Virus record (IMG/VR): IMGVR_UViG_3300021373_000005
DNA from: a virus
Length of the DNA stretch: 64,000 bases
Strand: one strand, 5' to 3'
Shown: one piece after another, positions 6,138-46,179 of the stretch
How the letters are laid out: each line of letters starts with the position of its first letter
How positions within the stretch are numbered: position 1 is the first letter of the stretch
Position numbers and translations under genes: made by a program
The notes under the pieces: model-generated
The model's database searches: none
What the model was told of the DNA's origin: nothing
Seen by the model: only the letters and a program-made list of their open reading frames with translations

Positions 6138-6833
6138 CTATACTTCTTCAAATAAAACATTCTCTACATATTGATTTTTGCGTTCTTCAGGTACACCCAT
6201 TGCGAGTATTGAAGAATGAAGCATCTTATTCATTTTCTGATTACGACAATATTTGTTCTGTGCTTCTTTTGTATTCAGACAATCTAATTTCTGATGAACA
6301 GGATTTCCCATCTCTGAACAATAAAAAGTAACTAGGTTCAAAGCCATCTGACAAAGTTGGTCTGTTTCTAATCCTTCTCTTATTGAACCTGCGCCTACAA
6401 TATTTTCAGAAAAGATTTCTTTTGCCCAGTCAGGCATCTCTCTTGCTCTTGTCCAAGTTAGTTCTTCGGTTTCGTATTTAAACTTATCTAGGAATACATG
6501 ACCTCGGTCGTGAAGTGGAGAGTAATCGCAAAAGCAACCTGATATCTTTTTAGGATTAGCAACAATATCTAAACCGAAGATAGGAAGGTCAACATCAAAC
6601 TCAGGAAACACATTAATATGCATTAACCATAATTTGTTTTTACCTACGGGTTCAATTGTTTTTAAATGACATTTGCGAATAATGTCGTTTGACCAAAAGT
6701 GATCTTCCCAACCGTTTAAGTCTGCTGTGTGTTTAGGATTATCATAACGTTCCATATAGGAATCAAACACATTACAGATTTCCTCTGATAAATTTCTCAA
6801 TCTATCAAAGAGAGGACTTTCAATTTTATTCAT
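6138..6833 (-). CDS. pcyX: Ferredoxin-dependent bilin reductase (PcyA/PcyX-like)
   Basis: RKCHLKT, MHINVFP, LPIFGLDIV, CDYSPL, N.YCRNQKMN match the FDBR pattern; likely start MNKIE at 6833 overlapping the heme oxygenase stop (track start 6947). Subfamily call is tentative. Confidence 0.75.
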   Translation of the reverse strand: MNKIESPLFDRLRNLSEEICNVFDSYMERYDNPKHTADLNGWEDHFWSNDIIRKCHLKTIEPVGKNKLWLMHINVFPEFDVDLPIFGLDIVANPKKISGCFCDYSPLHDRGHVFLDKFKYETEELTWTRAREMPDWAKEIFSENIVGAGSIREGLETDQLCQMALNLVTFYCSEMGNPVHQKLDCLNTKEAQNKYCRNQKMNKMLHSSILAMGVPEERKNQYVENVLFEEV

Positions 6834-7446
6834 TATCTTCCCAACCGCCCATCTGTCTTGCCATCGCATAATTTTCTGGTTCGTAATCTTCTGCGTTGTT
6901 TCGATAGTTTTCCATGAGCTCATGGAATAACCTTTCTGCATATTCAAAACATATCATTGCTTCGTCAGCCATTCCATCATGTAATAATTCTCTTACTTGT
7001 TTAATCAACTCTGCCCTGTTTTCAAATTCATACATAAGACCTGCACCAGGAACATTTCTTTTAATGATTTGACCACCGTGAGCATCTCCAAAGTGTCTTA
7101 CATACAAATGAGCAAGTAATGCTTCGTTATCACCATCTTCGAGAAGTTTATGAATATGTTTATTATATTCTATAACGGATTCAAAGTTTTCTTCAACTTC
7201 TTCTAAATCGTAAGTGGATTGTAATTCTGATAAATCTTCTTCAATTAAAGTTGACCTAAAGATAGGTTCTAATTCCATCGGTACTTCAACCGCTGATTCC
7301 AATACCATATAATTTTGTAATTGAGCGTGTAAATATTCTTGGTAAAGTTTAGGACTGATATTCCCAGAAAGTAACATATCGGCAAATTCAGTTCTTTCTG
7401 CGTTATCGTGGTGTTGCCTTGTTAGTTCTTTTAAATTGTTTGCCAT
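6826..7446 (-). CDS. hemO: Heme oxygenase
   Basis: LKELTRQHHDNAE proximal-His helix and HLYVRHFGDAHGGQII distal helix. Confidence 0.92.
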   Translation of the reverse strand: MANNLKELTRQHHDNAERTEFADMLLSGNISPKLYQEYLHAQLQNYMVLESAVEVPMELEPIFRSTLIEEDLSELQSTYDLEEVEENFESVIEYNKHIHKLLEDGDNEALLAHLYVRHFGDAHGGQIIKRNVPGAGLMYEFENRAELIKQVRELLHDGMADEAMICFEYAERLFHELMENYRNNAEDYEPENYAMARQMGGWEDNE

Positions 7447-20300: not shown

Positions 20301-21005
20301 ATGGAAAAGAAACATTTAAACTTAAACTTATTAACTGAGGGACTTCCGTTAACGGATGTTCAAACTTTATATCATGAATTCTTTTATAGAAAAGATTATC
20401 AATGGTGGCGTGACGTTGAGCCTGGTGATACTGTTGTCGATATTGGTGCTTGTGTTGGCTTTTTTGTATGTCACGCTTTGGATCGTGGTGCTAATCGTAT
20501 CATTGCCGTTGAGCCTTCTCGCCCTCATCTCAAAACGCTTATAAGAAACATATCGGATTATTTTATTGACCACGGAAAGGTTCCTGTCTTACCTATTGAG
20601 GCTGGGATTGGTTCAACAGCAAATCATTTTGCGAATGTCTATTCAGACCATAAAGATTATAAAAAGATGTCTTTCTTGGATCTTGTAGTTGATTACGATA
20701 TCCCAAAGATAGATTATTTAAAAATTGATTGTGAAGGTGGAGAGTATGGTATCTTTACTGAAATGAATCTTCCGTATTTGAAAAATAACGTAAAACATAT
20801 TGCTTGCGAGTTTCATTTAAACGCATACAGCGGTTGTGTTAAACAATGGCAAAAATTTCGCGATGGTCTATTGAGAGAATTTGATGTTAATCAAGTAAGG
20901 TTCCTCGAACACGAAGATAGAGAAAAAGCTTACGACGATGAGTTTTTAAATAAAGGAGACTTTAAAAAGTGGAGTTCCTTTATGTTGTTTATTACCAATT
21001 CCTAA
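20301..21005 (+). CDS. FkbM-family SAM-dependent methyltransferase
   Basis: VVDIGACVGFF, AVEP, LKIDCEGGEY. Confidence 0.85.
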   Translation: MEKKHLNLNLLTEGLPLTDVQTLYHEFFYRKDYQWWRDVEPGDTVVDIGACVGFFVCHALDRGANRIIAVEPSRPHLKTLIRNISDYFIDHGKVPVLPIEAGIGSTANHFANVYSDHKDYKKMSFLDLVVDYDIPKIDYLKIDCEGGEYGIFTEMNLPYLKNNVKHIACEFHLNAYSGCVKQWQKFRDGLLREFDVNQVRFLEHEDREKAYDDEFLNKGDFKKWSSFMLFITNS

Positions 21006-21690
21006 CGTATATCATAAAAGTATTTGGAAGGTGATCTTCCCAATCATCATACCAAATCTTTTCTCTCAAAGCTTCATCTTTAAATAGTAACCTATCCTTA
21101 AGTGGAGTTAAAATTTCTTCTCTCCATTTCTCAAAGATCTTTTTCGTATTGTATCGTTTATCCATATAACAACGAATCGCAATGAATCGTGTTCGGTCCA
21201 TACAGAAAGGTAATATATCAGGACATAAGATATTATATTCTGCTCCCCAAGCATCTATCTTTAAATAATCAATAAACTCTAAATTATTCCAATAAGTGAT
21301 TTCAGCAAGAGTCATAACTCTAGGTTCTTCGCCTTCAACCATCGTTTGTGATTTGTAAATTGTTTGTCTATCGACATCCTTTCCAATCGCAGCGTTGATT
21401 GCTTTAACTTTGACTTGCTCAGGTGGTGTATCAATTATGTGGTCAGATACATTTTTAATCGCGGCTTTAAGTAATCGTCTGTTAGGTTCAATCATTAAGA
21501 CTTTGCCTGCGCCTGCATCTAAAGCTTTCTTTGAAAACAATCCAATGTTTGCTCCAATGTCGACGACAGTACCACCTGCCTGTACTTCAGACCACCAATC
21601 GTAGTCCTTTCCAAGTATAATTTGATTATGTAATGTTGAGATTTCTTGAATAGTCAGCCCAGCTGTATCAAGGTCGTGAATGTTTTGCAT
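20992..21690 (-). CDS. FkbM-family methyltransferase paralog
   Basis: VVDIGANIGLF, MIEP, LKIDAWGAEY; shares the N-terminal pattern with 20301..21005. Confidence 0.8.
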   Translation of the reverse strand: MQNIHDLDTAGLTIQEISTLHNQIILGKDYDWWSEVQAGGTVVDIGANIGLFSKKALDAGAGKVLMIEPNRRLLKAAIKNVSDHIIDTPPEQVKVKAINAAIGKDVDRQTIYKSQTMVEGEEPRVMTLAEITYWNNLEFIDYLKIDAWGAEYNILCPDILPFCMDRTRFIAIRCYMDKRYNTKKIFEKWREEILTPLKDRLLFKDEALREKIWYDDWEDHLPNTFMIYVRNW

Positions 21691-25121: not shown

Positions 25122-25553
25122 ATGAAAGTATTAGTATTTGGATTACCAGGTAGTGGTAAGAGCACGTTATCAGAACCGCTCGCAGAGCAGGTTGAAGGTG
25201 TCTGGATTAACGCAGACGCAGTAAGAGAAAAATATAATGATTGGGATTTCAGCGCTGAAGGCCGAATGAGGCAAGCAGCTCGTATGAGACATCTCGCAGA
25301 CGGAGTAAGTATGGCAGGTAAGATTGCGATTACTGATTTTGTTTGTCCTTTTCAAAAGGCAAGAGATGAGTTTGAACCTGATTATGTTATTTGGATGGAC
25401 ACCATTGAGGAAGGAAGATTTGAAGATACAAATAAAGTATTTGAGAAACCTCAACTCCTCGATGTAAACTATGTCGTAGATTCCTTTCGACATCAAGAAG
25501 AATTGAAACTTGCACCAATCTTAGAAAAGGCTTTCAGGCAATGGCAGAGTTAG
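25122..25553 (+). CDS. Adenylylsulfate (APS) kinase-like P-loop kinase
   Basis: GLPGSGKST, NAD.VR...DWDFS.EGR.RQA.R, FVCP, FEKP. Confidence 0.75.
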   Translation: MKVLVFGLPGSGKSTLSEPLAEQVEGVWINADAVREKYNDWDFSAEGRMRQAARMRHLADGVSMAGKIAITDFVCPFQKARDEFEPDYVIWMDTIEEGRFEDTNKVFEKPQLLDVNYVVDSFRHQEELKLAPILEKAFRQWQS

Positions 25554-25752: not shown

Positions 25753-26178
25753 ATGTTTGAAATGGAAAACGCATTCGATTTTAAGAAACCAACAGTTCAA
25801 ATGTTGGGAAGATGGCAACCCTGGCATGAAGGTCATACAAAATTATTTGAAAAGGCCTTGACATTGACGGGACAAGTTGTTATAATGGTACGTGAAGTAT
25901 ATGGATTTGAAGGTGATGCTGGTGCAGGACGCACTGTTGCTCAAACCGATAATCCTTTTGGAGAGATTGCTGTCATTGACGGTATTAAGAAAGGTCTTGG
26001 TGAAGCGGGCTATGAAGAAGGTCGCGAATATATGATTATGGCCGTTCCTAATATCGTCGACATCAGTTACGGTCGTGGAGTAGGTTATACATTTACAGAA
26101 CACGATCTTGGTGAAGATGTACATAAAATCTCTGCAACCAAAATTCGCGAACAAATGAGAGAAGAAGGTAAATTATGA
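25753..26178 (+). CDS. HIGH-family nucleotidyltransferase (cytidylyltransferase-like)
   Basis: GRWQPWHEGH, DNPF, ISATKIR. Confidence 0.75.
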   Translation: MFEMENAFDFKKPTVQMLGRWQPWHEGHTKLFEKALTLTGQVVIMVREVYGFEGDAGAGRTVAQTDNPFGEIAVIDGIKKGLGEAGYEEGREYMIMAVPNIVDISYGRGVGYTFTEHDLGEDVHKISATKIREQMREEGKL

Positions 26179-26753
26179 ATTTAGTAAAAAGCACAGACCC
26201 AATCTTAAGAAAAGAATTAGCTGATGTTGATTTGAAGAATCCGGGATTCGACCCAAAAGAATTAAAAGAACAAATGACAGAGTTAATGGTTTCCAAAAGA
26301 GGTCTAGGTCTGTCTGCTTGTCAAGTTGGCCTTGACCATAAGTTGTTTATTATTGGAGAGAATAAAGAAAACTGCATGATGTTTATCAATCCTGAAGTTA
26401 TTTCAGTATCAGAAGAAACTGAATTGGACGTTGAAGGTTGTTTAAGTTTCCCAGATATGTTTATTCGATTAGCAAGGCCTAAACAAGTTGAAGCAAAATG
26501 GTATGATGAAGAACTCAAAGAACAGAGCGGTTCTTTTGAAGGTTATACCGCAAGATGTTTCTTACATGAATTTGACCACTTATATGGAGTTGTATATAAA
26601 GATAAAGTATCTCGACTCAAGTGGGATCGTGCAAGAACAAAGAAAGATAAAATTACAAAACAACGAAATAAGCTTATGGCATATTTACAATCTGCTCAAT
26701 CAACAATTAATCAAGTTGAGTTGAGAGGACAAGAAGTAGCTGCCGAGGATTAA
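26175..26753 (+). CDS. def: Peptide deformylase
   Basis: GLGLSACQVG, EGCLS, HEFDHL. Confidence 0.93.
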   Translation: MNLVKSTDPILRKELADVDLKNPGFDPKELKEQMTELMVSKRGLGLSACQVGLDHKLFIIGENKENCMMFINPEVISVSEETELDVEGCLSFPDMFIRLARPKQVEAKWYDEELKEQSGSFEGYTARCFLHEFDHLYGVVYKDKVSRLKWDRARTKKDKITKQRNKLMAYLQSAQSTINQVELRGQEVAAED

Positions 26754-29588: not shown

Positions 29589-32147
29589 ATGGCATTGACA
29601 AAATTCTATACATCCGTTGAAAGGTATGGTAATAATATCTTACATCGTGGTTATGAAAACGGCAAACGTTTTTCGTATCGCGTACCTTTTCAACCAACTC
29701 TATATGTTCATACTCCGAAAGCTGGAGAAGAAGGTTATCGTTCTTTAGAAGGTGACCTGCCTGTATCTCCACACAAGTTTGGTGATATGCGTGAAGCAAA
29801 GAACTTCATTGAAGAATATAAAGGTGTTCATGGTATGAAGACCTTCGGTTCAACAAACTATGTTACTCAATTTATTCAAGAAGAATATCCTGACAAGATT
29901 ACATATGATGTAAGTCATGTGAATATTGTTTCATTTGATATTGAGGTTGACATCAGCGACGGTTATGCCAATATGGAAACGGCTGATAAACCTATTACTT
30001 CAATTGCTTATCATAGTTCAAGAAATGATACCTATTATGTACTTGGTCGTAAAGATTACGACAAGACAAAAACTGTAACTGATATTCCACACGACAAGAT
30101 TGAGTTTGTATTATTTGATGGAGTTGATGGTGAACGTGCTTTACTTCAATACTTTATGAAATTATGGACTAACGATTATCCAGATATCGTAACAGGTTGG
30201 AACGTTGAGTACTTTGATATTCAATACATCGTAACTCGTATCATAGCATTACTTGGAGAAGATACTGCAAGACGGTTATCTCCACATAAATCAATCAAAC
30301 AAAGATCCCGTGAAATCTTTGGTAAAGTCAATTCAACATATTCTATTATGGGTGTTGCTGTTATTGACTACATGGATTGCTTCAAGAAATTTGGTTATAA
30401 GTATGGTCCTCAAGAATCATATCGACTTGACCATATTGCTTATGTTGTCCTTGGTGAAAAGAAAATTGATTACTCTGAATATGGTTCGCTGACTGGATTG
30501 TGGGAAGAGAATCCACAATTATATTTGGACTATAACCTTAAAGATACTCAATTGATTGCTCGTCTTGAAGAAGAGACAGGATTGCTTGCTTTGGTTATGA
30601 CTGTTGCTTATGATGGTGGAGTTAATTATGGAGATGCTTTCGGAACGGTAGGTATTTGGGAATCAACCATTTATCGTAAACTGATGAAAGATAAAATTGT
30701 TCCTCCACTTAAAGGTAGTCCTGGTCAAAGAGCAGGAGATCTTGTAGGTGGTTATGTAAAAGATCCTAAAGTCGGAATGCATCCTTGGGTTGTATCATTT
30801 GACCTTAACTCTCTATATCCTCACTTGATGCTACAATATAATATGTCACCTGAAACATATATGCCTGATGACCGAGAATATGTAACTCAAGATATGGTTC
30901 TGAAAGGTGAATATCAAAATGATCGTCCAAATGTATCAGTTGCTGCCAACGGTGTTTGTTTCTCAAATAAGAAACTTGGAATCATTCCTGAAATCATTGA
31001 TGAATATTATAATAACCGTTCAGTTATCAAAAAGCAAATGATTGCTGCTGAACAACAGTTTGAGATTGAAAAAGATCCTGCTGAACTGAAAAGACTGAAA
31101 CGCGAAATCAATCAACTTCACAATTCACAAATGTCAATTAAGATTGCCATGAACAGTTTGTATGGTGCAACTGCTAACGTATATTTCTTATACTATATTA
31201 ACGAAATGGCAGAAGCAATTACAACTTCAGGTCAGTTAAGTATTCGTTATGCTCAAAAATCTGTAAACGATTATTTGAATAAAGTTCTTGGAACCGATGA
31301 TGTTGACTATATCATTTATATTGATACTGACTCTATCTATGTTGACTTTGGTCCTTTGATTACTGAAGTGTTCGGTACAACTGATATTGATAAAGACAAA
31401 GGTGAAGAGTTCCTTGACCGAGTATGTTCAACAAAGATTGAGCAAATCATTGAAGATGGTTACGAAAAGCTTGCCGCTGATTTAGGTACTTATCGTAATG
31501 CAATGGTAATGAAACGTGAAAAGATTGCTCACCGTGGAATTTTTGTTGCTAAGAAAAGATATATACTGAATACATTGAACTCTGAAGGAGTTCATTATGA
31601 TACTCCAAAGATATCAGTAACAGGTTTGGAATCAGTAAGATCCTCAACTCCTGAAATCTGTCGAGAGAAACTCAAGAAATGTTTTGAAGTTATTATGAAT
31701 ACTGACGAAGAAACAACTCAAGAGTTTATCAAAGATTTCAAAGAAGAATTTAAAAAGTTGGATCCGATTGCTATCGCAAAGACTTCAGGTGTATCTGAAC
31801 TTAAAAAGTATCAAGAGAAAGGATCCATATATAAGAAAGGTACTCCGATGCATGTTCGTGGTTCCTTGATGTATAATCATTTCTTAAAGGAAAAAGGACT
31901 TGATAAGAAATTTGAAACTATCCAAGGTGGAGATAAAGTCAAGCTACTTTATTTAAAGGTACCAAATCCTATTCGAGAAAACGCAATCTCGGTTCCTGGG
32001 TTATTGCCTAAACAACTTGGATTACATGAATATATTGATACTGAACTTCAGTTTGATAAAGTATTCTTAAATCCTATTCAATCAATCCTAGATGCGGTTG
32101 GTTGGTCAGCTGAACGAGTAAATACGATTGAAGATTTTTTCAGCTAA
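29589..32147 (+). CDS. gp43: Family B DNA polymerase
   Basis: FDIE, GWNVEYFD, SFDLNSLYP, KIAMNSLYG, YIDTDS, KKRY; no intron or intein seen. Confidence 0.97.
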   Translation: MALTKFYTSVERYGNNILHRGYENGKRFSYRVPFQPTLYVHTPKAGEEGYRSLEGDLPVSPHKFGDMREAKNFIEEYKGVHGMKTFGSTNYVTQFIQEEYPDKITYDVSHVNIVSFDIEVDISDGYANMETADKPITSIAYHSSRNDTYYVLGRKDYDKTKTVTDIPHDKIEFVLFDGVDGERALLQYFMKLWTNDYPDIVTGWNVEYFDIQYIVTRIIALLGEDTARRLSPHKSIKQRSREIFGKVNSTYSIMGVAVIDYMDCFKKFGYKYGPQESYRLDHIAYVVLGEKKIDYSEYGSLTGLWEENPQLYLDYNLKDTQLIARLEEETGLLALVMTVAYDGGVNYGDAFGTVGIWESTIYRKLMKDKIVPPLKGSPGQRAGDLVGGYVKDPKVGMHPWVVSFDLNSLYPHLMLQYNMSPETYMPDDREYVTQDMVLKGEYQNDRPNVSVAANGVCFSNKKLGIIPEIIDEYYNNRSVIKKQMIAAEQQFEIEKDPAELKRLKREINQLHNSQMSIKIAMNSLYGATANVYFLYYINEMAEAITTSGQLSIRYAQKSVNDYLNKVLGTDDVDYIIYIDTDSIYVDFGPLITEVFGTTDIDKDKGEEFLDRVCSTKIEQIIEDGYEKLAADLGTYRNAMVMKREKIAHRGIFVAKKRYILNTLNSEGVHYDTPKISVTGLESVRSSTPEICREKLKKCFEVIMNTDEETTQEFIKDFKEEFKKLDPIAIAKTSGVSELKKYQEKGSIYKKGTPMHVRGSLMYNHFLKEKGLDKKFETIQGGDKVKLLYLKVPNPIRENAISVPGLLPKQLGLHEYIDTELQFDKVFLNPIQSILDAVGWSAERVNTIEDFFS

Positions 32148-32495: not shown

Positions 32496-32707
32496 TAAAA
32501 ATTTACGGTAAAGACAATTGTGCATACTGTAATATGGCAAAACAGCTATGCGAATCAAAAGGACTTGATTACGAATACTTAATGCTTGATGAAGATTACA
32601 AGCAAGAAGAATTTTTTGAAACTTTTCCCGGTGCAAGAACCTTTCCTCAAATTCAAAAGGATGGAGAAAACATCGGTGGCTTTATGGAATTAAGAGAATT
32701 ATTATGA
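32492..32707 (+). CDS. nrdC: Glutaredoxin
   Basis: CAYC active site, RTFPQI, IGGF. Confidence 0.88.
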   Translation: MIKIYGKDNCAYCNMAKQLCESKGLDYEYLMLDEDYKQEEFFETFPGARTFPQIQKDGENIGGFMELRELL

Positions 32708-33123
32708 GTAAAGATTGGGTTAAAGATATACAAGATATGCAAACCAAATATCAGACAAGAGATTGGGTTGCGAATAACGCAAATGACATTAACAAATTAA
32801 AAGCGTTTTTGAGATTTAGAATTGATTTCTTGGAAGAGGAATTAACTGAAACTCGAAATGCGCAAAAAGTTATCGACTCCGAAGAAATCGTAGATGGTTT
32901 AGTTGACCTTTGTGTAGTGGCAATCGGTACTCTTGATGCCTTCGGAGTCGACCCTTATAAAGCTTGGGACGCAGTTCTCGAAGCAAACATGGCAAAAGAA
33001 GTAGGTGTAAAGGAAGGAAGGCCAAATCCACTTGGTGTACCTGACTTAATGAAACCAGAAGGATGGACGGCTCCATCTCATGAAGGAAATCATGGAGTCC
33101 TACCAACATTAAAAGGAGAATAA
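32704..33123 (+). CDS. MazG/PRA-PH-like all-alpha NTP pyrophosphatase
   Basis: LEEELTE, EEIVDGLVDL.VV..GT, V.EANM.K...KPEGW..P. Confidence 0.8.
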   Translation: MSKDWVKDIQDMQTKYQTRDWVANNANDINKLKAFLRFRIDFLEEELTETRNAQKVIDSEEIVDGLVDLCVVAIGTLDAFGVDPYKAWDAVLEANMAKEVGVKEGRPNPLGVPDLMKPEGWTAPSHEGNHGVLPTLKGE

Positions 33124-34483: not shown

Positions 34484-34834
34484 TTGCCTATGAGCAAACA
34501 AACAAACCCAGTTTCGGTTGATGTACTACAAGAGTGCGTTGACCTTCAGTTGAAAAAGTCTCGCGATTATCAGAATCCGAACTCAACTGTTCAACAAGCC
34601 GACTACTATCCTAACGGTATTACAACCATTCATGATATTATGCATGCAAAAATGCTTCGTATGAAATCTGTTATGGAAGCAATGCAGTCGGATGATTATG
34701 ATCCTAACTTTGAATCCCTTGAAGATTCAGCAAAAGATTTAATTAACTATTCAAGTTTCTTTGTCTCTTACTGTCGTAAAGGTATTAAAGGTCAAGATCC
34801 AACTAAAGATGTATTTAATAGGAGTACTAAATAA
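34484..34834 (+). CDS. Nucleotide-modification-associated all-alpha protein (Nmad1/DUF1599-like)
   Basis: ECVDLQLKKSRDY, K..R..S, SLEDSAKDLINY. Confidence 0.6.
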   Translation: MPMSKQTNPVSVDVLQECVDLQLKKSRDYQNPNSTVQQADYYPNGITTIHDIMHAKMLRMKSVMEAMQSDDYDPNFESLEDSAKDLINYSSFFVSYCRKGIKGQDPTKDVFNRSTK

Positions 34835-35088
34835 TGAGTAATGTGATATTACCGTCAAGTGACGAAGACAAGAAAAGAATCCGTGGCTGCATGGAAGAAA
34901 TGAGCAATTCATTTACAAGAATGGAATCAGAACGTGATTTTCAAAAAGAAGCAATTAATGCTTTGGCTGAAGAAGTACAGATTCCAAAATCAATCCTAAG
35001 GAAAACCGCAAGAGCTTTCCATAATCAAAATGTTTCAGATCTCGTTGCTGAAGTATCGGATATTGAAGCGTTAATGGAAACAATTTAA
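34834..35088 (+). CDS. DsbA-like dsDNA-binding protein
   Basis: Helical pattern E.S....ESERD..KEAI..L.EE..IPK..LRK.AR..H. Confidence 0.55.
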   Translation: MSNVILPSSDEDKKRIRGCMEEMSNSFTRMESERDFQKEAINALAEEVQIPKSILRKTARAFHNQNVSDLVAEVSDIEALMETI

Positions 35089-35762
35089 TGGACAGAGTTT
35101 CTAATATTCAACAAACCATCATTGACAAATATCTCAGTGAAGATTTTGTCATTGACAAGACAGGTGTAAAAACTGTTGAAATTATTGGTGCAACATTTAT
35201 TGCTGATAGAGATTATGTCATTCGTAAACCTGCGTATGAATATATCCAACGCGAATTAGAATGGTATAAATCACAATCATTATATGTTGATGATATTCCT
35301 GGTGGTGCTCCACAAATTTGGAAAGATGTCTCATCTGACGAAGGTAAGATTAATTCAAATTATGGTTGGTGCATTTACTCTGAAGAGAATGGTAATCAAT
35401 ACAAACATGTTCAGCGTGAATTGAGAAACAATCCAAACTCTCGTAGAGCAACAATGATTTATAATCGACCAAGTATGCATTTGGATTACAACCGAGATGG
35501 TATGTCTGACTTTATGTGTACCTATGCAAATACTTTTTATATTCGCGATGGTAAACTTGACTCACATTACCTAATGCGTTCTAACGACGCAGTCTTTGGT
35601 TATAATAATGATTATGCTTGGGCAAGATATGTTCAGAATCAACTTGCTGAAGATCTTGGTATTGAAGTTGGTAATCTGATTTGGACAGCATCAAACTTCC
35701 ATGTATATGAAAGACATTTCAACTTTATTGAGGAATTAATTGATGGACTCAAAGTGGGATAA
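35088..35762 (+). CDS. gp42: dCMP hydroxymethylase (thymidylate synthase fold)
   Basis: INSNYGW, SRRATMIY.RPSM, MSDFMCT catalytic Cys, MRSND..FG..NDY with Asp at the TS Asn177 position (cytosine specificity), HVYERHF. Confidence 0.88.
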   Translation: MDRVSNIQQTIIDKYLSEDFVIDKTGVKTVEIIGATFIADRDYVIRKPAYEYIQRELEWYKSQSLYVDDIPGGAPQIWKDVSSDEGKINSNYGWCIYSEENGNQYKHVQRELRNNPNSRRATMIYNRPSMHLDYNRDGMSDFMCTYANTFYIRDGKLDSHYLMRSNDAVFGYNNDYAWARYVQNQLAEDLGIEVGNLIWTASNFHVYERHFNFIEELIDGLKVG

Positions 35763-36195
35763 ACGCTTTATGCGTGTTGCTCAGGAAATATCTTCTTGGA
35801 GCAAAGATCCTTCAAAACAAATAGGAGCAGTGGCAGTTAACTCTGACCGTCGTATCCTAGCAACTGGGTATAATGGATTTCCAAAAGGAATTGAAGATAT
35901 ACCTGCTCGGTATGAAGATAGAACAATTAAATATGACTTGGTTGTTCATGCCGAGATGAACTGTATATACAATGCGACCTTTTCTGGCATTTCATTAAAG
36001 GATTCTACAATGTATGTATGGGGATTACCAGTTTGCCACGATTGTGCAAAAGGTATTATCCAAGTAGGCATAAATAGAATTGTCATTGGTATGTTGGATT
36101 CTCCACAAAAGTGGTTAGATTCATTTGAAAAATCAAGACGTATGTTTGACGAAGCAGATATTGCTATTGACTTTTTACATGATACTGTCAACTAA
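35740..36195 (+). CDS. cd: dCMP deaminase
   Basis: SKDPSKQIGAV, TGYNGFP, HAEMN, PVCHDCAK. Confidence 0.9.
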   Translation: MMDSKWDKRFMRVAQEISSWSKDPSKQIGAVAVNSDRRILATGYNGFPKGIEDIPARYEDRTIKYDLVVHAEMNCIYNATFSGISLKDSTMYVWGLPVCHDCAKGIIQVGINRIVIGMLDSPQKWLDSFEKSRRMFDEADIAIDFLHDTVN

Positions 36196-36459: not shown

Positions 36460-37494
36460 ATGGCATTACACAAAAGAATAGTACTTGACTTTGACGACAC
36501 ATTAGCGTTTACGTCAAACAGAGATTGGGAAAACGCAGAACCCAACATTGCTTTGATTGAAAAATGTAATGAATTATATAATGCAGGTTGGCAAGTAGAT
36601 ATTTTTACTGCTCGTGGTTCTATTTCTTGTAGGAGTAGAGTTGAAGCAGAAGAAAAGTATGGAGAACAAATACGGTCTTGGTTAGAAAAGCATCATGTAA
36701 AATATCATATGTTATCTTTTGATAAACCACTTGCTGCATATTATATTGATGATAAAGGTATTACACCTGAAGATTTTATATATGCTGACATTCGTGAATT
36801 AGAAGGTGGTCTATCAGGATCTGATATTTACACTGATGGTATGTTAGTACATAAGACCGCAAGTAATGCTCATGAAGTAGCAAAGTGGTACAAAGAAACA
36901 GGTTCAGCAGTTATGACTCCTGAAATCCATAGAGTGGTTGGTGATACAATTACAATGGATTACATTGACCACGATGAAGAGTTCTTCAAGCATTCTCCAT
37001 ATAAAGCATTAGCAATGATTCAAGAAGCACTTGATGAATTCGGTCATATACCTACTAAAAAGTTTTTAACATTTGATGACTATATCGCAAGGATTGTAGG
37101 TCATGTTCAGTTAGCTGATGTACCTGTGTTTAATGATATTGTTGAAAGAATGGCAAATATTAATTTAGAATACGGATATTGTCACGGAGATTTTGGTGTT
37201 AAGAACATGCTCTTTACAGAACATAACATGCACTTAATTGACCCTATCCCTAATGTATTTGGTTGTCGTGAACTTGACATAGCAAAATTTATCGCAAGCT
37301 TACTAATTAATCGTTATAACATTGAACTACAAGATCTTTCAATCAATACACTGTTAGCTTACAATCCTCAAATAGAAAGAAACACATTAATAATTTTAAC
37401 AGCAGCTGAGATTATTCGTGTATATAAGTATCACCCTGATAAAGATTTTATTATACAATGTGTTAACGACATTACGGAAGAATTATGTTTTTAG
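36460..37494 (+). CDS. HAD phosphatase (EcbF/BcbF-like) fused to an APH/choline-kinase-like domain
   Basis: N-terminal DFDDTL, FTARG, KP.A.YYIDDK; C-terminal CHGDFGVKNML and LIDP. Confidence 0.8.
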   Translation: MALHKRIVLDFDDTLAFTSNRDWENAEPNIALIEKCNELYNAGWQVDIFTARGSISCRSRVEAEEKYGEQIRSWLEKHHVKYHMLSFDKPLAAYYIDDKGITPEDFIYADIRELEGGLSGSDIYTDGMLVHKTASNAHEVAKWYKETGSAVMTPEIHRVVGDTITMDYIDHDEEFFKHSPYKALAMIQEALDEFGHIPTKKFLTFDDYIARIVGHVQLADVPVFNDIVERMANINLEYGYCHGDFGVKNMLFTEHNMHLIDPIPNVFGCRELDIAKFIASLLINRYNIELQDLSINTLLAYNPQIERNTLIILTAAEIIRVYKYHPDKDFIIQCVNDITEELCF

Positions 37495-37919
37495 ATAGAA
37501 AGAAATTACCTCAAGATTTTAAAGTAGGATTTACATGTTCTACTTTTGATTTGTTTCACGCAGGTCATATTGTAATGTTACAAGAAGCAAAGACATTGTG
37601 TGATTATTTGATTGTTGGATTATTAATTGACCCAACAGTGGATCGTCCTGAGTCAAAGAACAAGCCTATTCAAACTCCTTTTGAGAGATACATACAGGTT
37701 TCATCTTGTAAGTATGTTGACGAAGTTATTCCTTTTACAACAGAACAAGAAATCGTTGATATGATCTTGACGATTAATCCTGACATAAGAATTGTTGGTG
37801 AAGAATATAAAGACCAAGAACATACAGGTAAAGGCTTATGTCCTGTTCATTATAATAGACGAAGACACTCATTCAGTTCAACAGAGCTCAGACAACGTGT
37901 AGTCAATTCTAATAAATAA
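37485..37919 (+). CDS. Cytidylyltransferase (TagD/HldE-C-like)
   Basis: STFDLFHAGH, LIVGL, ER...V.SCKYVDEVIP, SFSST. Confidence 0.85.
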   Translation: MFLDRKKLPQDFKVGFTCSTFDLFHAGHIVMLQEAKTLCDYLIVGLLIDPTVDRPESKNKPIQTPFERYIQVSSCKYVDEVIPFTTEQEIVDMILTINPDIRIVGEEYKDQEHTGKGLCPVHYNRRRHSFSSTELRQRVVNSNK

Positions 37920-37944: not shown

Positions 37945-39204
37945 ATGAAAAACATTGGATTCGCAAAGATTGGCAAGTCAGTCAAGTTTAAACGCAATAG
38001 GTTCTCACCTATCGGTGGAGACAACGAGCCATCTTCAGTTCTAATTGCACTCGCAAATAATAACCCAGACAAAACATTTTATATTATCGGTCGTTCTGAC
38101 TTCAGCACTCTTTCTGAATCTGAAGCTTTGGATTTATTTCCGTATGATAATGTAATTGATATTTGGAAAGGTATTAAGAATGATGAAACCGATAGCTTTT
38201 ATCGTCATGTGATTAACTATTTTAATCAGAGAGGATTTAAGTTAGATTATACTGTTATGATGGTAGGTCAAGTTGGTACTGTTACGATCCCAGGTAAGAT
38301 TACTCAAGTGAAACATTTAAAAGAAGGTATCACTGACGGTAAACCTGCTTCTGTGATTGATATGACAAAGAACTATACTTCTCCTATTGCGATTTGGTTA
38401 AATGAAGAAAAGCCTGACTACGTTGAGATTGTAAATGATCCACGATATGTAATGAATCAATCAAGAGATATCTTTCATTTACCAAATAAGTCGTTAGGTC
38501 AATATGATTATAAGTATAAAGCAAGTACAATAGAATCATATGAAAACCAAGAACGATCCGACAAATTTGTAGAATCTGTATATGCAGGAATGGAAACAAA
38601 CTTTTGTGTTCGTTACGACTATACAGAAGAATTTAATACAACAAGAAACATTCCTTTTATGGTCATATTGAATGAAGGTAAACCTTCAAGATATGGATTG
38701 ATGAAGGAATGGGTATTGAACGATTTTGAAGATGTTGAAGTTTATGGAAAATGGGAACACCCAGATACAGAAACTGATGCTAGGTTCAAAGGTTCTATTC
38801 ATCTTGACGATGTAATTCGTAAATTGGATAATGTTAAATTTACGTTTATTATTCCAATTGAAAAAGGTTGGGTAACAGCAAAGTATATTGAAATGATACA
38901 CGCAGGAGTTGTTCCTTTCTTACATCCAACATATGATGAACAGAAACATTTACCTATACCTGACTTCTTACGACCAAAAACTCCAACTGAGTTTAAAGAA
39001 AGAATGGATAGATTACTAAATAATGAAGAAGAGTACTTATCAGTAGTTAAAGGATTGCGTAAACTTATATGCAAGCCTGAGTTATATGATGGCACCTTCT
39101 TAAACAATAAAATTATGACAGCAATTGATGAAGATTATATCGCTACTGATATATCACAATACGAAAAGAAAACTGCTGCTACACTTGAGGACTTTTTTGG
39201 ATGA
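37945..39204 (+). CDS. Putative GT-B glycosyltransferase (DNA-modifying candidate)
   Basis: C-terminal YGKW...FKG...L..VKFTFIIPI..GWVTAKY.E...AGVVPF resembles a GT-B nucleotide-sugar domain; context; C-terminal TLEDFFG. Confidence 0.5.
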   Translation: MKNIGFAKIGKSVKFKRNRFSPIGGDNEPSSVLIALANNNPDKTFYIIGRSDFSTLSESEALDLFPYDNVIDIWKGIKNDETDSFYRHVINYFNQRGFKLDYTVMMVGQVGTVTIPGKITQVKHLKEGITDGKPASVIDMTKNYTSPIAIWLNEEKPDYVEIVNDPRYVMNQSRDIFHLPNKSLGQYDYKYKASTIESYENQERSDKFVESVYAGMETNFCVRYDYTEEFNTTRNIPFMVILNEGKPSRYGLMKEWVLNDFEDVEVYGKWEHPDTETDARFKGSIHLDDVIRKLDNVKFTFIIPIEKGWVTAKYIEMIHAGVVPFLHPTYDEQKHLPIPDFLRPKTPTEFKERMDRLLNNEEEYLSVVKGLRKLICKPELYDGTFLNNKIMTAIDEDYIATDISQYEKKTAATLEDFFG

Positions 39205-40421
39205 AACAAGATATAACATGGGCACCACTTATTCCGCTTATTGGTGGACAAATGCTAGGAGCGGAAAAAGCTTTCGGTAAACCACCCGAAGCAATTTATT
39301 CTTATAGTGGATTTGAAGCTAACGATGGACATTATGTCAATTATCAACAAGTAACGAAAGGACGTGATATTCCTTATGTATTACTTGATTCTGAAAATCC
39401 AAATATTAAACAAGTGGATGTAGTATCAGGTACTCCACCTTGCGCTGCATTATCACAATTAAATACTGGATTAACTGAAGAATCAAAAGGTGCTAAATGT
39501 GCAAAGAACGAATTTATGTATCAGGTCTTTCAAGATGGTATTGATGTTTTAGGAGCAAAGGTTGTTATTGTTGAGAACGCTCCTGCACTATATACAAACA
39601 AAGGTCGTCCAGTCGCAAATAGACTGTATGAAATTTGTGCTGAGAGAGGTTATTCTTTATCTCTGTATAAAACCTCAACGAGATATCATGGAGTTCCTCA
39701 GGGACGAGATAGAACGTTTGCGATTGGTTGGAAGTCAAGTACTTCTCCTGTATTAAACTGGTATAACCGTGATCGTAAATCATTTGCCGAATATCTTAAA
39801 GAAATTCCTGATGATGCATTACAACACGATTTGATTATTAATAAGAATGTACCTGAAGAACCTTACTATACATTTATTAAAACAAAAACAAACCGTGATG
39901 TAAGAGAGATTATGTTAGAAGAAGATGTAAAGACAACTCTCAATTATGTTAACAAAAAAGGTTGGATGAAAGAAGCAAACGAATGGTTCCATAAGACAGG
40001 ACATGAAAAAGGTATTAAGTATTCTGACCACGCAATTAAAAAGTATGCTGATGGATTAGGTGTATGGGATGGTTCAGTACATGTCTTTGGTGATTATATG
40101 AATGCAGTCATTGGTCGTAATATGGTTGATACGATTCACCCAACTGAAGATAGGTCATTAACTATTCGTGAAGCTCTACATATGATGGGATTCCCAGAAG
40201 ACTTTGAACTATTAGGTGGATTGCCTAAAGTAAATCATATTGCTCAAAATGTTCCTGTACCTACATCAAGAGATTTACATTCTGAGATTGGTAAATTTTT
40301 AAGAGGCGAACTAACATTATCTGATACCACTTATTTAAGACAAAACAATCATAAACAATTAATGGAGTTTGACCCTAACGGAAAAGATACAACTCCATCT
40401 CTTGAAGAATTTATGTCATAA
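39201..40421 (+). CDS. DNA cytosine-C5 methyltransferase homolog with atypical motif I
   Basis: Motif IV GTPPC, VI VENAP, VIII PQGRDR, IX R.LTIREA..MGFPEDF, X AQNVP; motif I reads LIPLIGG. Confidence 0.8.
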   Translation: MKQDITWAPLIPLIGGQMLGAEKAFGKPPEAIYSYSGFEANDGHYVNYQQVTKGRDIPYVLLDSENPNIKQVDVVSGTPPCAALSQLNTGLTEESKGAKCAKNEFMYQVFQDGIDVLGAKVVIVENAPALYTNKGRPVANRLYEICAERGYSLSLYKTSTRYHGVPQGRDRTFAIGWKSSTSPVLNWYNRDRKSFAEYLKEIPDDALQHDLIINKNVPEEPYYTFIKTKTNRDVREIMLEEDVKTTLNYVNKKGWMKEANEWFHKTGHEKGIKYSDHAIKKYADGLGVWDGSVHVFGDYMNAVIGRNMVDTIHPTEDRSLTIREALHMMGFPEDFELLGGLPKVNHIAQNVPVPTSRDLHSEIGKFLRGELTLSDTTYLRQNNHKQLMEFDPNGKDTTPSLEEFMS

Positions 40422-40461: not shown

Positions 40462-41100
40462 ATGAGAAATGATTTAATAATAGACTTTGAAACAATGGGT
40501 CAAGACGTACATAATTGTGCTGTCATTGATATGTCAGTAATGGTATTTCAATGGGACAAGTTTACGTCTGACGATCCATACAATTTAGGCGATGTATTCA
40601 AGGTGAAGAAATTCAAATTGAATGTATCGGAGCAAGTCAAGAATTACAATTGGGTAGTTGATAAAGGTACATTGGACTTTTGGTCGCAGCAGGATTCTGA
40701 AGTAAGAAAGAATATTGCTCCTAAGAGTTCTGATTTATCTGTTGCTGATTTTGTAAAACAATTCACAGATTTTTTAATTGATAGCCCAAAGATTGATTTT
40801 TGGTGGTCAAGGTCTAATTCATTTGACCCAGTTATTCTGGAAAGATTATTTAAATCTCAGAATAAAGTAAATCATTTACAATCACACTTACAACATTGGA
40901 AAGTTAGAGATACAAGAACTTTTATTGATGCAAAGTTTGATTTTGGTTTGAAGAAGAATGGATTCCCTCCTTGTGCTAATGAAGATAAATGGGATTCTGT
41001 ATTTAAAGCACATGATTCAGCTTGGGATATATTGGCAGACGTAATGAGATTACAATCAATCACAAGAGCTGAAAATGATATGGAGCAAATCACAGTATGA
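40462..41100 (+). CDS. dexA: 3'-5' exonuclease (DEDDh, DexA-like)
   Basis: IIDFETMG, WSRSNSFD..IL, W.VRD.RTF, HDSAWD. Confidence 0.75.
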   Translation: MRNDLIIDFETMGQDVHNCAVIDMSVMVFQWDKFTSDDPYNLGDVFKVKKFKLNVSEQVKNYNWVVDKGTLDFWSQQDSEVRKNIAPKSSDLSVADFVKQFTDFLIDSPKIDFWWSRSNSFDPVILERLFKSQNKVNHLQSHLQHWKVRDTRTFIDAKFDFGLKKNGFPPCANEDKWDSVFKAHDSAWDILADVMRLQSITRAENDMEQITV

Positions 41101-41966
41101 AATTAGAAGTAAAAACAGAAGAACTACAAAAACAACGACTCTTTATTGGAACACCTATGTATGGTGGATCTTGTGCAGGATTATATACAAAGTCAACAAA
41201 TGATTTAAGTATGTTATGTTCATCGCATAAAATTCCAATGAAATACTATTTCTTATTTAACGAAAGTTTAGTACAAAGAGCTAGGAATTATATTGTTGAT
41301 GAATTCCTTCGTTCTGACTGTACTCATTTATTGTTTATAGATTCAGATATTGGATTTGACCCAAGAGATGCATTAGCATTACTTGCATTACAAATATCAG
41401 ACCCAGAGAAGTATGATATTGTATGCGGTCCATATCCAAAGAAAACAATTGCATGGGAAAAGGTTTCTGTAGCAGCACAGCAAGGTGTTGGAAAGGAAAA
41501 TCCTTTTGAACTTGAACAATATACATCAGATTTTGTCTTTAACCCTGTTGCGGATATAAGACAATTTAAACTCTCCGACCCTGTTGAAGTGGCAGAAGGT
41601 GGAACTGGGTTTATGTTAATTACAAGAGATGCTCTCGAAAGATATCGAGACACATATCCAGAGTTATCATATAAACCTGACCATGTTCGTACTGACAAGT
41701 TTGACGGTACTCGTGAGATTCATGCTTTCTTTGATTGTGTCATTGACCCAGAGTCAAAGAGGTACTTATCCGAGGATTACTTTTTCTGTAAGATGGCTCG
41801 TAAAGCAGGTCTTTCAGTTTGGATGTGTCCTTGGATGAAAATCAACCATGTTGGTTCTTATATCTTTAAGGGTGACATGGGTGCTCTAGGTCAACTAGGA
41901 GTTACTGCTACTGCAGATTCTAAATCTAATAAGAAAGCTTATAATCCTGTTGACAAGTCCAAGTAA
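41097..41966 (+). CDS. GT-A-like glycosyltransferase-related protein
   Basis: IGTPMYGG, ESLVQRARN, THLLFIDSDI (DxD-like), GTGFMLI, YLSEDY.FC. Confidence 0.7.
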   Translation: MKLEVKTEELQKQRLFIGTPMYGGSCAGLYTKSTNDLSMLCSSHKIPMKYYFLFNESLVQRARNYIVDEFLRSDCTHLLFIDSDIGFDPRDALALLALQISDPEKYDIVCGPYPKKTIAWEKVSVAAQQGVGKENPFELEQYTSDFVFNPVADIRQFKLSDPVEVAEGGTGFMLITRDALERYRDTYPELSYKPDHVRTDKFDGTREIHAFFDCVIDPESKRYLSEDYFFCKMARKAGLSVWMCPWMKINHVGSYIFKGDMGALGQLGVTATADSKSNKKAYNPVDKSK

Positions 41967-42013: not shown

Positions 42014-42676
42014 ATGAAATTTTCTAACGAAACTTTGACGGTCTTAAAAAGCTTTACTCAAATCAACAAGTCAATCTTGATGAAAGAAGGTAATGTTCTT
42101 AAGACTATCACTCCGGAGAAGACATTAATTGCTATCGCAGACATTCCTGATGAAATTCCATCAGATGCATGTGTATACGATCTTTCAAGATTTTTATCAA
42201 TTTTGTCTTTATATAATGACCCAGATGTAGAGTTTTTTGATAAATACTTTATTATCTCGGAAGGTAAGCGTAGAACGAAATATGTCTATGCAGATTTATC
42301 AATGATACATACACCACCTGAAAAGGATATTACTATTCCTTCAGCAGATGTTGTAGTTAATGTATCTAATGATGAATTAACTTCAGTGCTCAAAGCAGCA
42401 GGGGTATTACAATTTTCAGAGATTGCGTTTGTAGGCGAAGGCGGCAAATGCTATCTGAAAGCAATCGACAGTACGAACGAAGGCGCAGATGACTTTGGCG
42501 TTGAAATCGGGGATACTGCCGACGAGTTTAAAATTATTATTAAAACTGATAATTTAAAACTCATGCCTTTGGATTATGAGGTTACGCTTTGTTCAAAAGG
42601 TATCTCAGAATTTAAAGGTCAAGGTGTCACATATTATGTGGCTATAGATTCAAAGTCGACTTATAATAAAAGGTGA
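42014..42676 (+). CDS. gp45: Sliding clamp
   Basis: MKFSNETLTVLKSF..IN.SI, VYDL..FLS.LSL, F.IIIK..NLKL. Confidence 0.93.
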   Translation: MKFSNETLTVLKSFTQINKSILMKEGNVLKTITPEKTLIAIADIPDEIPSDACVYDLSRFLSILSLYNDPDVEFFDKYFIISEGKRRTKYVYADLSMIHTPPEKDITIPSADVVVNVSNDELTSVLKAAGVLQFSEIAFVGEGGKCYLKAIDSTNEGADDFGVEIGDTADEFKIIIKTDNLKLMPLDYEVTLCSKGISEFKGQGVTYYVAIDSKSTYNKR

Positions 42677-45078: not shown

Positions 45079-45165
45079 ATTTAGTAAGGTGCCGTAAGGG
45101 CTTTACAAAAGGTGATGGGTAATAACCATCGAATAATAATATCTAGCTTATTAAAGGAGATAAAA

Positions 45166-45615
45166 ATGACTGGATTAAATATAAATCAACTACACCCTTT
45201 TGCTGTAGGATTCGATAGAGTCTTCGACAGATTGGTGGAGTTCCCTCAAGTACATCAATCACAAGGCTTCCCGCCTTACAATATCAGAAGAGACGAAGAC
45301 AAGTTCTATATTGACCTTGCTTTGGCAGGACTTGATATTGATGATGTAGAAATCGAAGTAAAAGAAGATGTATTAACCATTCGTTCCACATGGGATGAAG
45401 CAGGTGATTACTTCAATGGCGGCGGTGAGTATGTTCACCGTGGTATTTCTTTCAAGAAGTTCAAAAGAAGCTTTACTCTTGCGGACGATATTGAAGTAAT
45501 TGACGCCAACTTCGCAAACGGTCTTTTAACTGTCTCATTGGAAAGAATTATTCCTGAGGCAAAGAAAGCACGTAAAATTAAGATTAAAACTGAGAAAGAA
45601 CTTCTCAAAGGTTAA
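45166..45615 (+). CDS. hsp20: Small heat-shock protein (Hsp20/IbpA-like)
   Basis: GFDRVFD, FPPYNI, YVHRGIS...F.RSF.L, A.F.NGLL.V.LE...PE; start after AAGGAG at 45166. Confidence 0.93.
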   Translation: MTGLNINQLHPFAVGFDRVFDRLVEFPQVHQSQGFPPYNIRRDEDKFYIDLALAGLDIDDVEIEVKEDVLTIRSTWDEAGDYFNGGGEYVHRGISFKKFKRSFTLADDIEVIDANFANGLLTVSLERIIPEAKKARKIKIKTEKELLKG

Positions 45616-45669
45616 TCTATTTTAATCCGGGAGGTCGCAATGGCCTCCCAACTAAAAGGAAACTATATT

Positions 45670-46179
45670 ATGAAACAAGTACCTAACGTTACTTTCAAAG
45701 TAAGAAGCAGAAATGTAGACACAGGTGATTTTGAATGGCAACATCCAACAACCAATGATTATTTTGGTGGTAAGAGAGTTGTAATGTTCTCATTACCTGG
45801 CGCATTTACACCAACCTGTTCTAATAATCAAGTACCAGGATTCGATGTCCTATATGACCAAATTATTGAAGCAGGTATTGATGAAGTATATTGCGTATCC
45901 TGTAATGATACATTCGTTATGAATGCATGGGCTGAAGATCTTAGAGTCAAGAATGTTAAATTCATTCCTGATGGATCTTGTGAATTTACAGCAGGTATGG
46001 AAATGTTAGTCGCAAAGGATAATCTTGGTTTCGGTAAAAGATCTTGGAGATATGCTGCTGTCGTAGAAGACGGTGTTGTTGAAAAGATGTTTGTTGAACC
46101 TGGATTTGAAGATGACTGTCCAACAGATCCTTATGGTGAATCTTCGCCTGAAACTGTTCTTGCTTATTTAAAACAATAA
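45670..46179 (+). CDS. Peroxiredoxin (Prx5/Redoxin family)
   Basis: SLPGAFTPTCS, SCND.FVM.AW, DG..EFT, RSWRYA. Confidence 0.92.
   Translation: MKQVPNVTFKVRSRNVDTGDFEWQHPTTNDYFGGKRVVMFSLPGAFTPTCSNNQVPGFDVLYDQIIEAGIDEVYCVSCNDTFVMNAWAEDLRVKNVKFIPDGSCEFTAGMEMLVAKDNLGFGKRSWRYAAVVEDGVVEKMFVEPGFEDDCPTDPYGESSPETVLAYLKQ

Follow-up and report, generated by a model that had tools for sequence, protein, structure and literature searches.

A phage C5-methyltransferase homologue with an altered motif I, encoded beside dCMP hydroxymethylase and DNA glycosyltransferase genes

What could a cytosine C5-methyltransferase homologue do in a phage whose cytosines are predicted to carry a hydroxymethyl group at C5 already? 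The question is raised by one open reading frame (ORF) in a 64,000-nucleotide stretch of the IMG/VR virus record IMGVR_UViG_3300021373_000005 (hereafter the window), whose product we call the methylase-like protein. The window comes from a marine myovirus of the T4-like kind, has a GC content of ~0.34 and carries genes for gp41, UvsX, gp32, topoisomerase II, gp55, gp46/47, gp43, gp45, gp44/62, RegA and baseplate components. A first-pass annotation of this DNA had offered two answers, namely that substitution by 5-hydroxymethylcytosine (5hmC) is partial and the remaining cytosines are methylated, or that the enzyme has been repurposed to act on 5hmC. Both remain the leading readings, and computation decides neither. 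We favour, at a probability of roughly 0.4, the view that the methylase-like protein is a replisome-riding, post-replicative enzyme of a 5hmC-sugar hypermodification pathway and not an ordinary sequence-specific methylase. The prediction of covalent chemistry at cytosine C6 on nascent phage DNA, within such a pathway, is almost certainly right. The reaction itself may differ from plain methylation, and we give somewhat less than an even chance to its being a tailoring of 5hmC in new DNA that does without S-adenosylmethionine (SAM).

The predicted structure has the fold of a C5-methyltransferase. The AlphaFold2 model (pLDDT 94.8) is matched in Foldseek by M.HaeIII and M.HhaI at E ~1e-13, with target-normalised TM-scores (TMt) of 0.66-0.71. 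The Pfam profile PF00145 matches at E 4.3e-22 and 79.4 bits (cut-off 22), its alignment covering residues 63-364, which correspond to profile positions 56-323 of 324; because it begins at position 56, motifs I-III of the protein fall outside the match. The NCBIfam profile TIGR00675 (dcm) gives 62.1 bits, under its cut-off of 100.65. With M.HhaI, M.HaeIII and E. coli Dcm the protein shares, besides the fold, the motif IV cysteine, the motif VI glutamate, the motif VIII Arg-x-Arg, the motif IX Arg-Glu (R323-E324) and the motif X asparagine. A search of 1.84 billion cluster representatives returned 1803 relatives at a threshold of E ≤ 0.001, of which 296 (50%-identity clusters) passed E ≤ 1e-30, and the query was aligned with 134 full-length cluster representatives at 33-68% identity to give a family alignment of 135 sequences. 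Throughout this alignment C81, E125, R169 and R171 are invariant, each in 135/135. The catalytic PC, EN and QxRxR-like motifs that the first-pass annotation had called intact are indeed there, as PPC81, E125-N-A and Q167-G-R-D-R. Judged by sequence, Cys81, Glu125, Arg169 and Arg171 make up the complete cytosine-attacking apparatus, kept in a methylase-like protein.

Such invariance argues for catalysis. It therefore counts against an explanation that we regard as improbable, namely that the protein does not modify phage DNA and is either a base-flipping binder that shields 5hmC DNA from modification-dependent nucleases, or a methylase of host DNA or RNA. The fold can act on RNA, as it does in DNMT2. 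In addition, some divergent C5-methyltransferases from metaviromes gave no methylation in E. coli (Burke et al., PMC8256090). However, the inactive clades of that study had disrupted motifs VIII-X, and these motifs are intact in the family described here.

What has changed in this family is the N-terminal, cofactor-binding part. Motif I of the window protein was read in the first pass as LIPLIGG instead of FxGxGG, and this reading is borne out at residues 10-16: hhalign with E. coli Dcm pairs P-L-I-P-L-I-G-G with D-L-F-A-G-I-G-G at a probability of 89%. The alteration is shared by the family, with P12 in 122, L13 in 128, G15 in 130 and G16 in 129 of the 135 sequences; the first glycine is replaced by leucine in 128/135 and the phenylalanine by I, V or Q, giving the form (I/V/Q)-P-L-I-G-G. 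Canonical C5-methyltransferases have, in addition, a ribose-binding glutamate at the place of motif II. Strand 2 of the model reaches residue 34, its next helix spans residues 39-52, and at positions 36-40, where the acid would be expected, none is conserved (Asp plus Glu reach at most 36/135 at each position); a conserved N41-D42 pair lies on the helix after strand 2. In this fold, SAM binding depends most generally on the aromatic residue and first glycine of motif I and on the acid of motif II. Other motifs also depart family-wide from those of M.HhaI, M.HaeIII and Dcm: where the latter have F-x-G-x-G-G, P-C-Q-x-F-S, E-N-V and G-N-x-V, the family has P-L-I-G-G, P-C-A-G-L-S, E-N-A-P and Q-N-V-P, the glycine preceding the motif X asparagine being glutamine in 132/135.

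Profile comparisons locate the divergence in the same region. A profile of the first 140 residues, built from 36 members, matched solved C5-methyltransferases (E ≤ 1) only from about position 52, and over the first ~58 residues no solved C5-methyltransferase matched the family profile at E ≤ 1; the match of the whole-protein profile likewise begins past motifs I-II. Degeneration or decay of the gene was ruled out on two grounds, the family-wide conservation of the altered motifs and the confidence of the model. The altered motif I is a family signature and not a mark of decay. The mean pairwise identity within the family is 0.37 in the N-terminal part, as against 0.21 in the target-recognition part, so the cofactor-binding part is under selection, rebuilt rather than eroded. 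From the sequence, profile and secondary-structure correspondence we infer that the pocket has been rebuilt and that SAM binding may have been lost. The target-recognition region is the most variable part of the protein (3/125 columns conserved), and an argument for one common target, which presupposed a strongly conserved target-recognition domain, was dropped for this reason.

A comparison with CmoX (PDB 8YF3) is instructive. CmoX is a carboxy-SAM-using phage enzyme that carboxymethylates DNA cytosine at C5 (PMC12783734), and it offers the likeness of a phage C5-methyltransferase homologue repurposed in a hypermodification pathway; it stands at rank 48 among the Foldseek matches. The changes, however, are opposite. 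CmoX keeps the contacts to the SAM adenosine, namely Phe25, Glu47 (its motif II glutamate), Phe48 and Asp69, and has Arg350 in place of the motif X asparagine (PMC12783734), whereas the present family retains that asparagine and, by alignment, loses the adenosine contacts. CmoX-type enzymes are marked by this arginine, an S-P-P-C motif and a CmoA partner (PMC12783734). A carboxymethyltransferase of this type was ruled out, N350 being present in 130/135 and the motif reading T-P-P-C; a PHROG scan of 58 window ORFs gave no CmoA-like match.

The company that the gene keeps was surveyed in two samples. In the protein's own lineage (80 IMG/VR loci, alignment A2, 68-99% identity), a hydroxymethylase gene was found in 31/31 loci having at least 5 kb upstream, and a homologue of the glycosyltransferase lay directly upstream in 60/61 loci with enough flank. 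In a distant sub-clade (80 loci; alignment A3, whose members are 33-57% identical to the protein of the window), a ThyA-family gene lay within 10 kb in 31/80 loci, and all 30 readable ThyA-family neighbours carried the gp42 signature D143/T147/D169/D177. For genomes with no hydroxymethylase gene nearby, whole-record searches placed a gp42-signature gene elsewhere in 5/5 (G002 and G005-G008, 45-100% complete), and Pseudoalteromonas phage XG4 has a gp42-type gene near its methylase-like gene. When 1662 neighbouring ORFs were clustered and counted over 47 methylase-like groups, the most widespread neighbour was the hydroxymethylase (25/47), followed by a HAD phosphatase (16), a transferase resembling T4 beta-glucosyltransferase (BGT; 15), dCMP deaminase (13), DNA polymerase (12) and a RecA-like protein (11). 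Sugar epimerases and dehydratases, nucleotidyltransferases, an aminotransferase, glycosyltransferases, FkbM methyltransferases and a 5-hmdU DNA kinase helical-domain protein also recurred. On a tree of 49 groups, a hydroxymethylase was nearby in 27 and elsewhere in the genome in 5, spread over all major clades. By the same procedure a ThyA-family match was found in 0/42 Dcm-type viral loci, most of them from one lineage, and the base rate of gp42-like genes in cultured phage records is 967/50,697. A single-protein scan with P0137 gave no matches. The methylase-like family is linked in its genomes to genes for dCMP hydroxymethylases of the gp42 type and for DNA glycosyltransferases.

Some of these neighbours merit mention in their own right. 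The loci L178 (14524-15516) and L179 (11339-12331) hold, besides the gp42-type gene, another ThyA homologue that has Glu at the L143 position and Asn at N177 and is by these residues a candidate dUMP hydroxymethylase, and one phage may therefore modify both pyrimidines. The helical-domain protein (PF18723, E 3.4e-7) stands beside the methylase-like gene at L140:8547-9989 and at 10 other loci (8 groups); it occurs in phages with a dCMP-type and not a dUMP-type hydroxymethylase, and could phosphorylate 5hmC in DNA.

In the window itself, the gene follows a set of predicted 5hmC and sugar genes (Table 1).

Table 1. Predicted features of the methylase-like gene and its surroundings, in window coordinates
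Feature	Position	Strand	Evidence
C5-methyltransferase-fold ORF, methylase-like protein, 406 aa	39201..40421	+	PF00145, AlphaFold2, Foldseek
Altered motif I, L-I-P-L-I-G-G, residues 10-16	39228..39248	+	hhalign to Dcm, family alignment
Motif IV, P-P-C (P79-P80-C81), catalytic Cys81	39435..39443	+	C81 in 135/135
Motif VI, E125-N126-A127 (canonical E-N-V)	39573..39581	+	E125 135, N126 133, A127 133 of 135
Motif VIII, Q167-G-R169-D-R171	39699..39713	+	Q167 131, R169 135, R171 135 of 135
Motif X variant, Q349-N350-V351-P352, Asn retained	40245..40256	+	Q349 132, N350 130, V351 132, P352 130 of 135
C-terminal tail of methylase-like protein, S-L-E-E-F-M-S, probable sliding-clamp anchor	40398..40418	+	likeness to polymerase tail
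Glycosyltransferase tail, T-L-E-D-F-F-G	39181-39201	+	tail comparison
gp43 polymerase tail, T-I-E-D-F-F-S	32124-32144	+	tail comparison
gp43 DNA polymerase	29589..32147	+	phrog_262, E 7.5e-294
MazG-like pyrophosphohydrolases, candidate dCTPase	34484..34834 (+), 32704-33123		phrog_18404, phrog_671; PF01503 for 32704-33123
dCMP hydroxymethylase, T4 gp42 type	35088..35762	+	E 8.6e-74 to PDB 1b49 (T4 dCMP hydroxymethylase)
dCMP deaminase	35740..36195	+	phrog_174, E 1.3e-44
HAD phosphatase fused to APH/CotS-like kinase (sugar activation)	36460..37494	+	phrog_1238; TIGR01689, TIGR02906 below cut-offs
Cytidylyl/adenylyl-transferase, RfaE domain II-like	37485..37919	+	PF01467, 56.9 bits; TIGR02199, E 1.4e-21
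GT-B DNA glycosyltransferase, T4 beta-glucosyltransferase-like, 419 aa	37945..39204	+	structure match
GT-A-like protein, 289 aa, possible second sugar transferase	41097..41966	+	phrog_1574, E 1.2e-58; weak PF13506; syntenic in related loci
gp45 sliding clamp	42014..42676	+	phrog_223, E 1.9e-68; PF09116

Both hallmarks of a T4-type 5hmC pathway, a gp42-type hydroxymethylase and a BGT-like transferase, are present. The former shares 55% identity with the T4-type enzyme by tblastn and has, in E. coli ThyA numbering, D at L143, T at H147, the retained D169 and D at N177. The ThyA positions that separate hydroxymethyl-forming from 5-hydroxycytosine-forming enzymes have been described (PMC13326640), and with D169 kept the window enzyme should be of the hydroxymethyl type. 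A 5-hydroxycytosine pathway was accordingly ruled out: the ThyA homologues of the 5-hydroxycytosine arabinosylation systems (RB69, DLP3) have Asn at the D169 position (PMC13326640), and the Asp is kept in the window enzyme and in the 30/30 readable family neighbours. The glycosyltransferase has no Pfam, PHROG or NCBIfam match, and its AlphaFold2 model (pLDDT 86.8) has T4 BGT (1j39 and 1bgu) as the best Foldseek matches, at E 6e-7 and TMt 0.58-0.64. The start codon of the methylase-like gene overlaps the stop codon of the glycosyltransferase gene as ATGA.

Three comparisons help to define what the methylase-like protein could add to such a pathway. First, the T-even system (gp42, gp56, gp1, cd, alpha- and beta-glucosyltransferase) has in common with the window the gp42 homologue, the dCMP deaminase and the BGT-like enzyme; T4, however, has no C5-methylase-like gene, and the window has sugar-activation genes of its own and no detectable gp56. 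Second, in a preprint by Pyle et al. (bioRxiv 10.1101/2023.12.21.572611), the HAD-APH, cytidylyltransferase and GT-B enzymes of a contig 53 sufficed for mono- and di-heptosyl-5hmC in E. coli. To judge by that description, the window has the same three-enzyme architecture of the sugar module, here beside a C5-methyltransferase-like gene. Third, clusters of a C5-methyltransferase, a TET enzyme (5mYOX) and glycosyltransferases make 5hmC after replication, by methylase plus TET, according to PMC8256090 and bioRxiv 10.1101/2023.12.21.572611, whereas in the window 5hmC would be made before replication by the gp42-type hydroxymethylase, which leaves a methylase step without an obvious role. A TET-coupled pathway found no support: Tet_JBP (PF12851) matched in 0/4 related records in a search whose own control matched in 0/14 genomes, and the window ORFs that were annotated include no such dioxygenase.

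Two further gene pairs were observed in the window. Two FkbM-family methyltransferase genes (PF05050), at 20301-21005 (+) and 20992-21690 (-), are convergent with overlapping 3' ends; FkbM-like genes stand near the methylase-like gene in 8 further groups and are possible sugar O-methylases of a DNA glycan. The adjacent ORFs 25122-25553 and 25753-26178, ~200 nt apart, match the first and second halves of phrog_10255 ('kinase'), the one being APS kinase-like and the other weakly nucleotidyltransferase-like, and may be a split or two-gene form of a fused enzyme.

The substrate is suggested by the C-terminus. The T4 and RB69 polymerase tail binds the gp45 clamp. A tail of the form (T/S)-(I/L)-E-(D/E)-F-(F/M)-x is shared by 3 of the 40 window ORFs listed, namely the polymerase (NTIEDFFS), the glycosyltransferase (ATLEDFFG) and the methylase-like protein (PSLEEFMS). 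Another lineage has K-x-K-x-L-F at the C-terminus of both the transferase and the methylase-like protein, and its polymerases terminate in a hydrophobic residue followed by Phe. In the 14 groups that encode these two proteins together, their tail classes agree in 8 and conflict in none, at least one tail being unclassified in the other 6. Of the C-termini of the 134 representatives, 30 are of the hydrophobic-Phe class (often K-x-K-x-L-F), which we take to resemble beta-clamp-binding tails, and 25 are T4-like, S/T-L-x-x-F-F-x. These likenesses suggest that both modifiers, the methylase-like protein and the glycosyltransferase, would travel with the clamp along newly made DNA. Together with the overlap between the two genes, the polymerase-type tail points to nascent phage DNA as the substrate, which also speaks against a shield or a host-directed methylase. 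A clamp-type tail, a distribution restricted to viruses and a dCMP hydroxymethylase as partner, in place of a restriction enzyme, further set the family apart from M.HhaI, M.HaeIII and Dcm.

Taken as a mechanism, the favoured reading would run as follows. The C-terminal tail would anchor the methylase-like protein to the gp45 clamp, and the protein would flip 5hmC, or a sugar derivative of it, out of freshly copied DNA. Cys81 would then add to C6 in the fashion of a methylase, and enamine or exocyclic-methylene chemistry would exchange or tailor the 5-CH2-OH group with a partner held in the rebuilt pocket, no methyl group being transferred from SAM. The chemistry has laboratory precedents. These include the coupling of thiols to 5hmC by engineered M.SssI and the addition of formaldehyde to cytosine by M.HhaI, which yields 5hmC in vitro (PMC7176277); M.MpeI appears to release the hydroxymethyl group as formaldehyde (PMC11347137). 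The first-pass statement that C5-methyltransferases can, without SAM in vitro, remove the hydroxymethyl group or couple thiols to 5hmC has backing in print. The rebuilt pocket, the exclusive company of hydroxymethylases and this known side-reaction chemistry are the reasons why SAM-independent tailoring of 5hmC is favoured. Repurposing is partly supported by the sequences, through the conserved alteration of motif I, the apparent lack of a conserved motif II acid, the unmatched first ~58 residues, the virus-only occurrence and the coupling to gp42. We consider it doubtful, though worth stating, that nature has an enzyme of the C5-methyltransferase fold which works without SAM, is held to the replisome by the clamp and uses covalent Cys-C6 catalysis to exchange or tailor the hydroxymethyl group of 5hmC, giving rise to an undescribed cytosine hypermodification, a counterpart of the kinase and transferase pathways of 5-hydroxymethyluracil. 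If the family does more than methylate, it represents a new type of reaction in phage DNA hypermodification. If the proposal is true, nature has put a methyltransferase fold to use in chemistry known to date only from side reactions in the laboratory, and site-selective labelling of 5hmC would gain a ready tool.

The same precedents bear on another possibility, to which we give little credit, that the protein is a post-replicative DNA cytosine hydroxymethylase, transferring a one-carbon unit to leftover cytosine in DNA, with formaldehyde or a folate in place of SAM as the donor, so that the glycosyltransferase can finish every site. To our knowledge, no natural post-replicative DNA cytosine hydroxymethylase of such a kind is known, which counts against it. 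A pocket rebuilt while the cytosine chemistry is kept would suit such an enzyme; its product would feed the adjacent transferase, its coupling to 5hmC pathways would be explained, and M.HhaI does form 5hmC from cytosine and formaldehyde in vitro (PMC7176277). No folate-binding feature was identified in the protein, however, and the possibility fits poorly with S-TIM5 if S-TIM5 makes 5-methyl-dCMP. In this cyanophage the gene annotated as thymidylate synthase (L002:5757-6593, -) has D177 but Cys at the L143 position, and keeps H147; by these residues its product may act on dCMP and could make 5-methyl-dCMP.

Several points weigh against SAM-independent tailoring by a replisome-riding enzyme. 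First, motif I retains its G-G, Asp63 is fairly conserved (83 D, 20 N and 11 E of 135) and the motif X asparagine is still there, and SAM may still be bound in a modified way. Second, a phmmer search with the T4 gp56 dCTPase against 250 window frames (64 kb of genome covered) gave no match at E ≤ 10, so that unsubstituted cytosine may remain as a substrate. The first-pass premise that 5hmC occupies C5 is well founded in the gp42-type hydroxymethylase, its E value and its signature residues, but not proven, the missing gp56 weighing against complete substitution. Third, 17/49 groups showed no hydroxymethylase, their contigs being short or 9-37% complete and partly searched. A gp42-type gene was not found in seven fragments that are 9-37% complete (the five from hydroxymethylase-negative groups, 9-30%), and two of the gp42-negative fragments hold a canonical ThyA with L143/H147/N177. 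Fourth, the Dcm control is essentially one lineage. Fifth, T4 and its cultured relatives make glucosyl-5hmC without a methylase-like protein, and, if the sugar modules are equal, the sufficiency of the contig 53 enzymes makes it seem that sugar attachment does not need one.

These points lend weight to the ordinary alternative, which we hold to be rather unlikely but serious: a SAM-dependent C5-methyltransferase of relaxed specificity, tethered to the clamp, that methylates the cytosines escaping 5hmC, so that every cytosine of the new DNA receives a C5 group. Such an enzyme would be expected to keep all catalytic motifs along with the G-G, Asp63 and the motif X asparagine, to have the fold of M.HhaI and M.HaeIII and to score above the Pfam cut-off, as this one does. 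This role would likewise account for the family's exclusive company of hydroxymethylases, and no gp56-type dCTPase is detectable in the window; in S-TIM5, a ThyA homologue that makes 5-methyl-dCMP could be complemented by the methylase. Clamp tethering, too, suits a maintenance-type methylase, DNMT1 and PCNA being the familiar pair. On the other side, the family as a whole has replaced the aromatic residue and first glycine of motif I and, it appears, the acid of motif II, and the dcm score is below its cut-off. Moreover, a dCTPase might not be missing, as either of two MazG-like pyrophosphohydrolases upstream of the hydroxymethylase could be one; they are the sole candidates in the window, one of them directly upstream of the hydroxymethylase gene, and neither has similarity to T4 gp56. 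If the ordinary alternative holds, the family shows how phages reach complete protection of cytosine without a T4-type dCTPase.

By its sequence relatives, the family is a virus-only one. In the three nearest Atlas clusters listed, 94-100% of the members with a known taxon are viral. Among cultured phages it occurs in 6/50,697 records, which are Pseudoalteromonas phage XG4 and five TIM5-like cyanophages. Being abundant in marine T4-like and jumbo phages and nearly absent from cultured ones, the family stands for a large untested part of phage biology. No description of it was found in the literature searched, the supplementary lists of tested C5-methyltransferase clades and of contig 53 (PMC8256090 and bioRxiv 10.1101/2023.12.21.572611) lying outside that scope. 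Some phages have two methylase-like copies, in tandem (L109, L110) or 25 kb apart (L100 and L102, in G002), and the P-L-x-G-G motif is present in all paralogues of these two-copy phages. Elsewhere in the window, at 6138-6947, 26175-26753 and 45112-46179, lie auxiliary genes of marine type: ferredoxin-dependent bilin-reductase-like, peptide deformylase, Hsp20 and peroxiredoxin.

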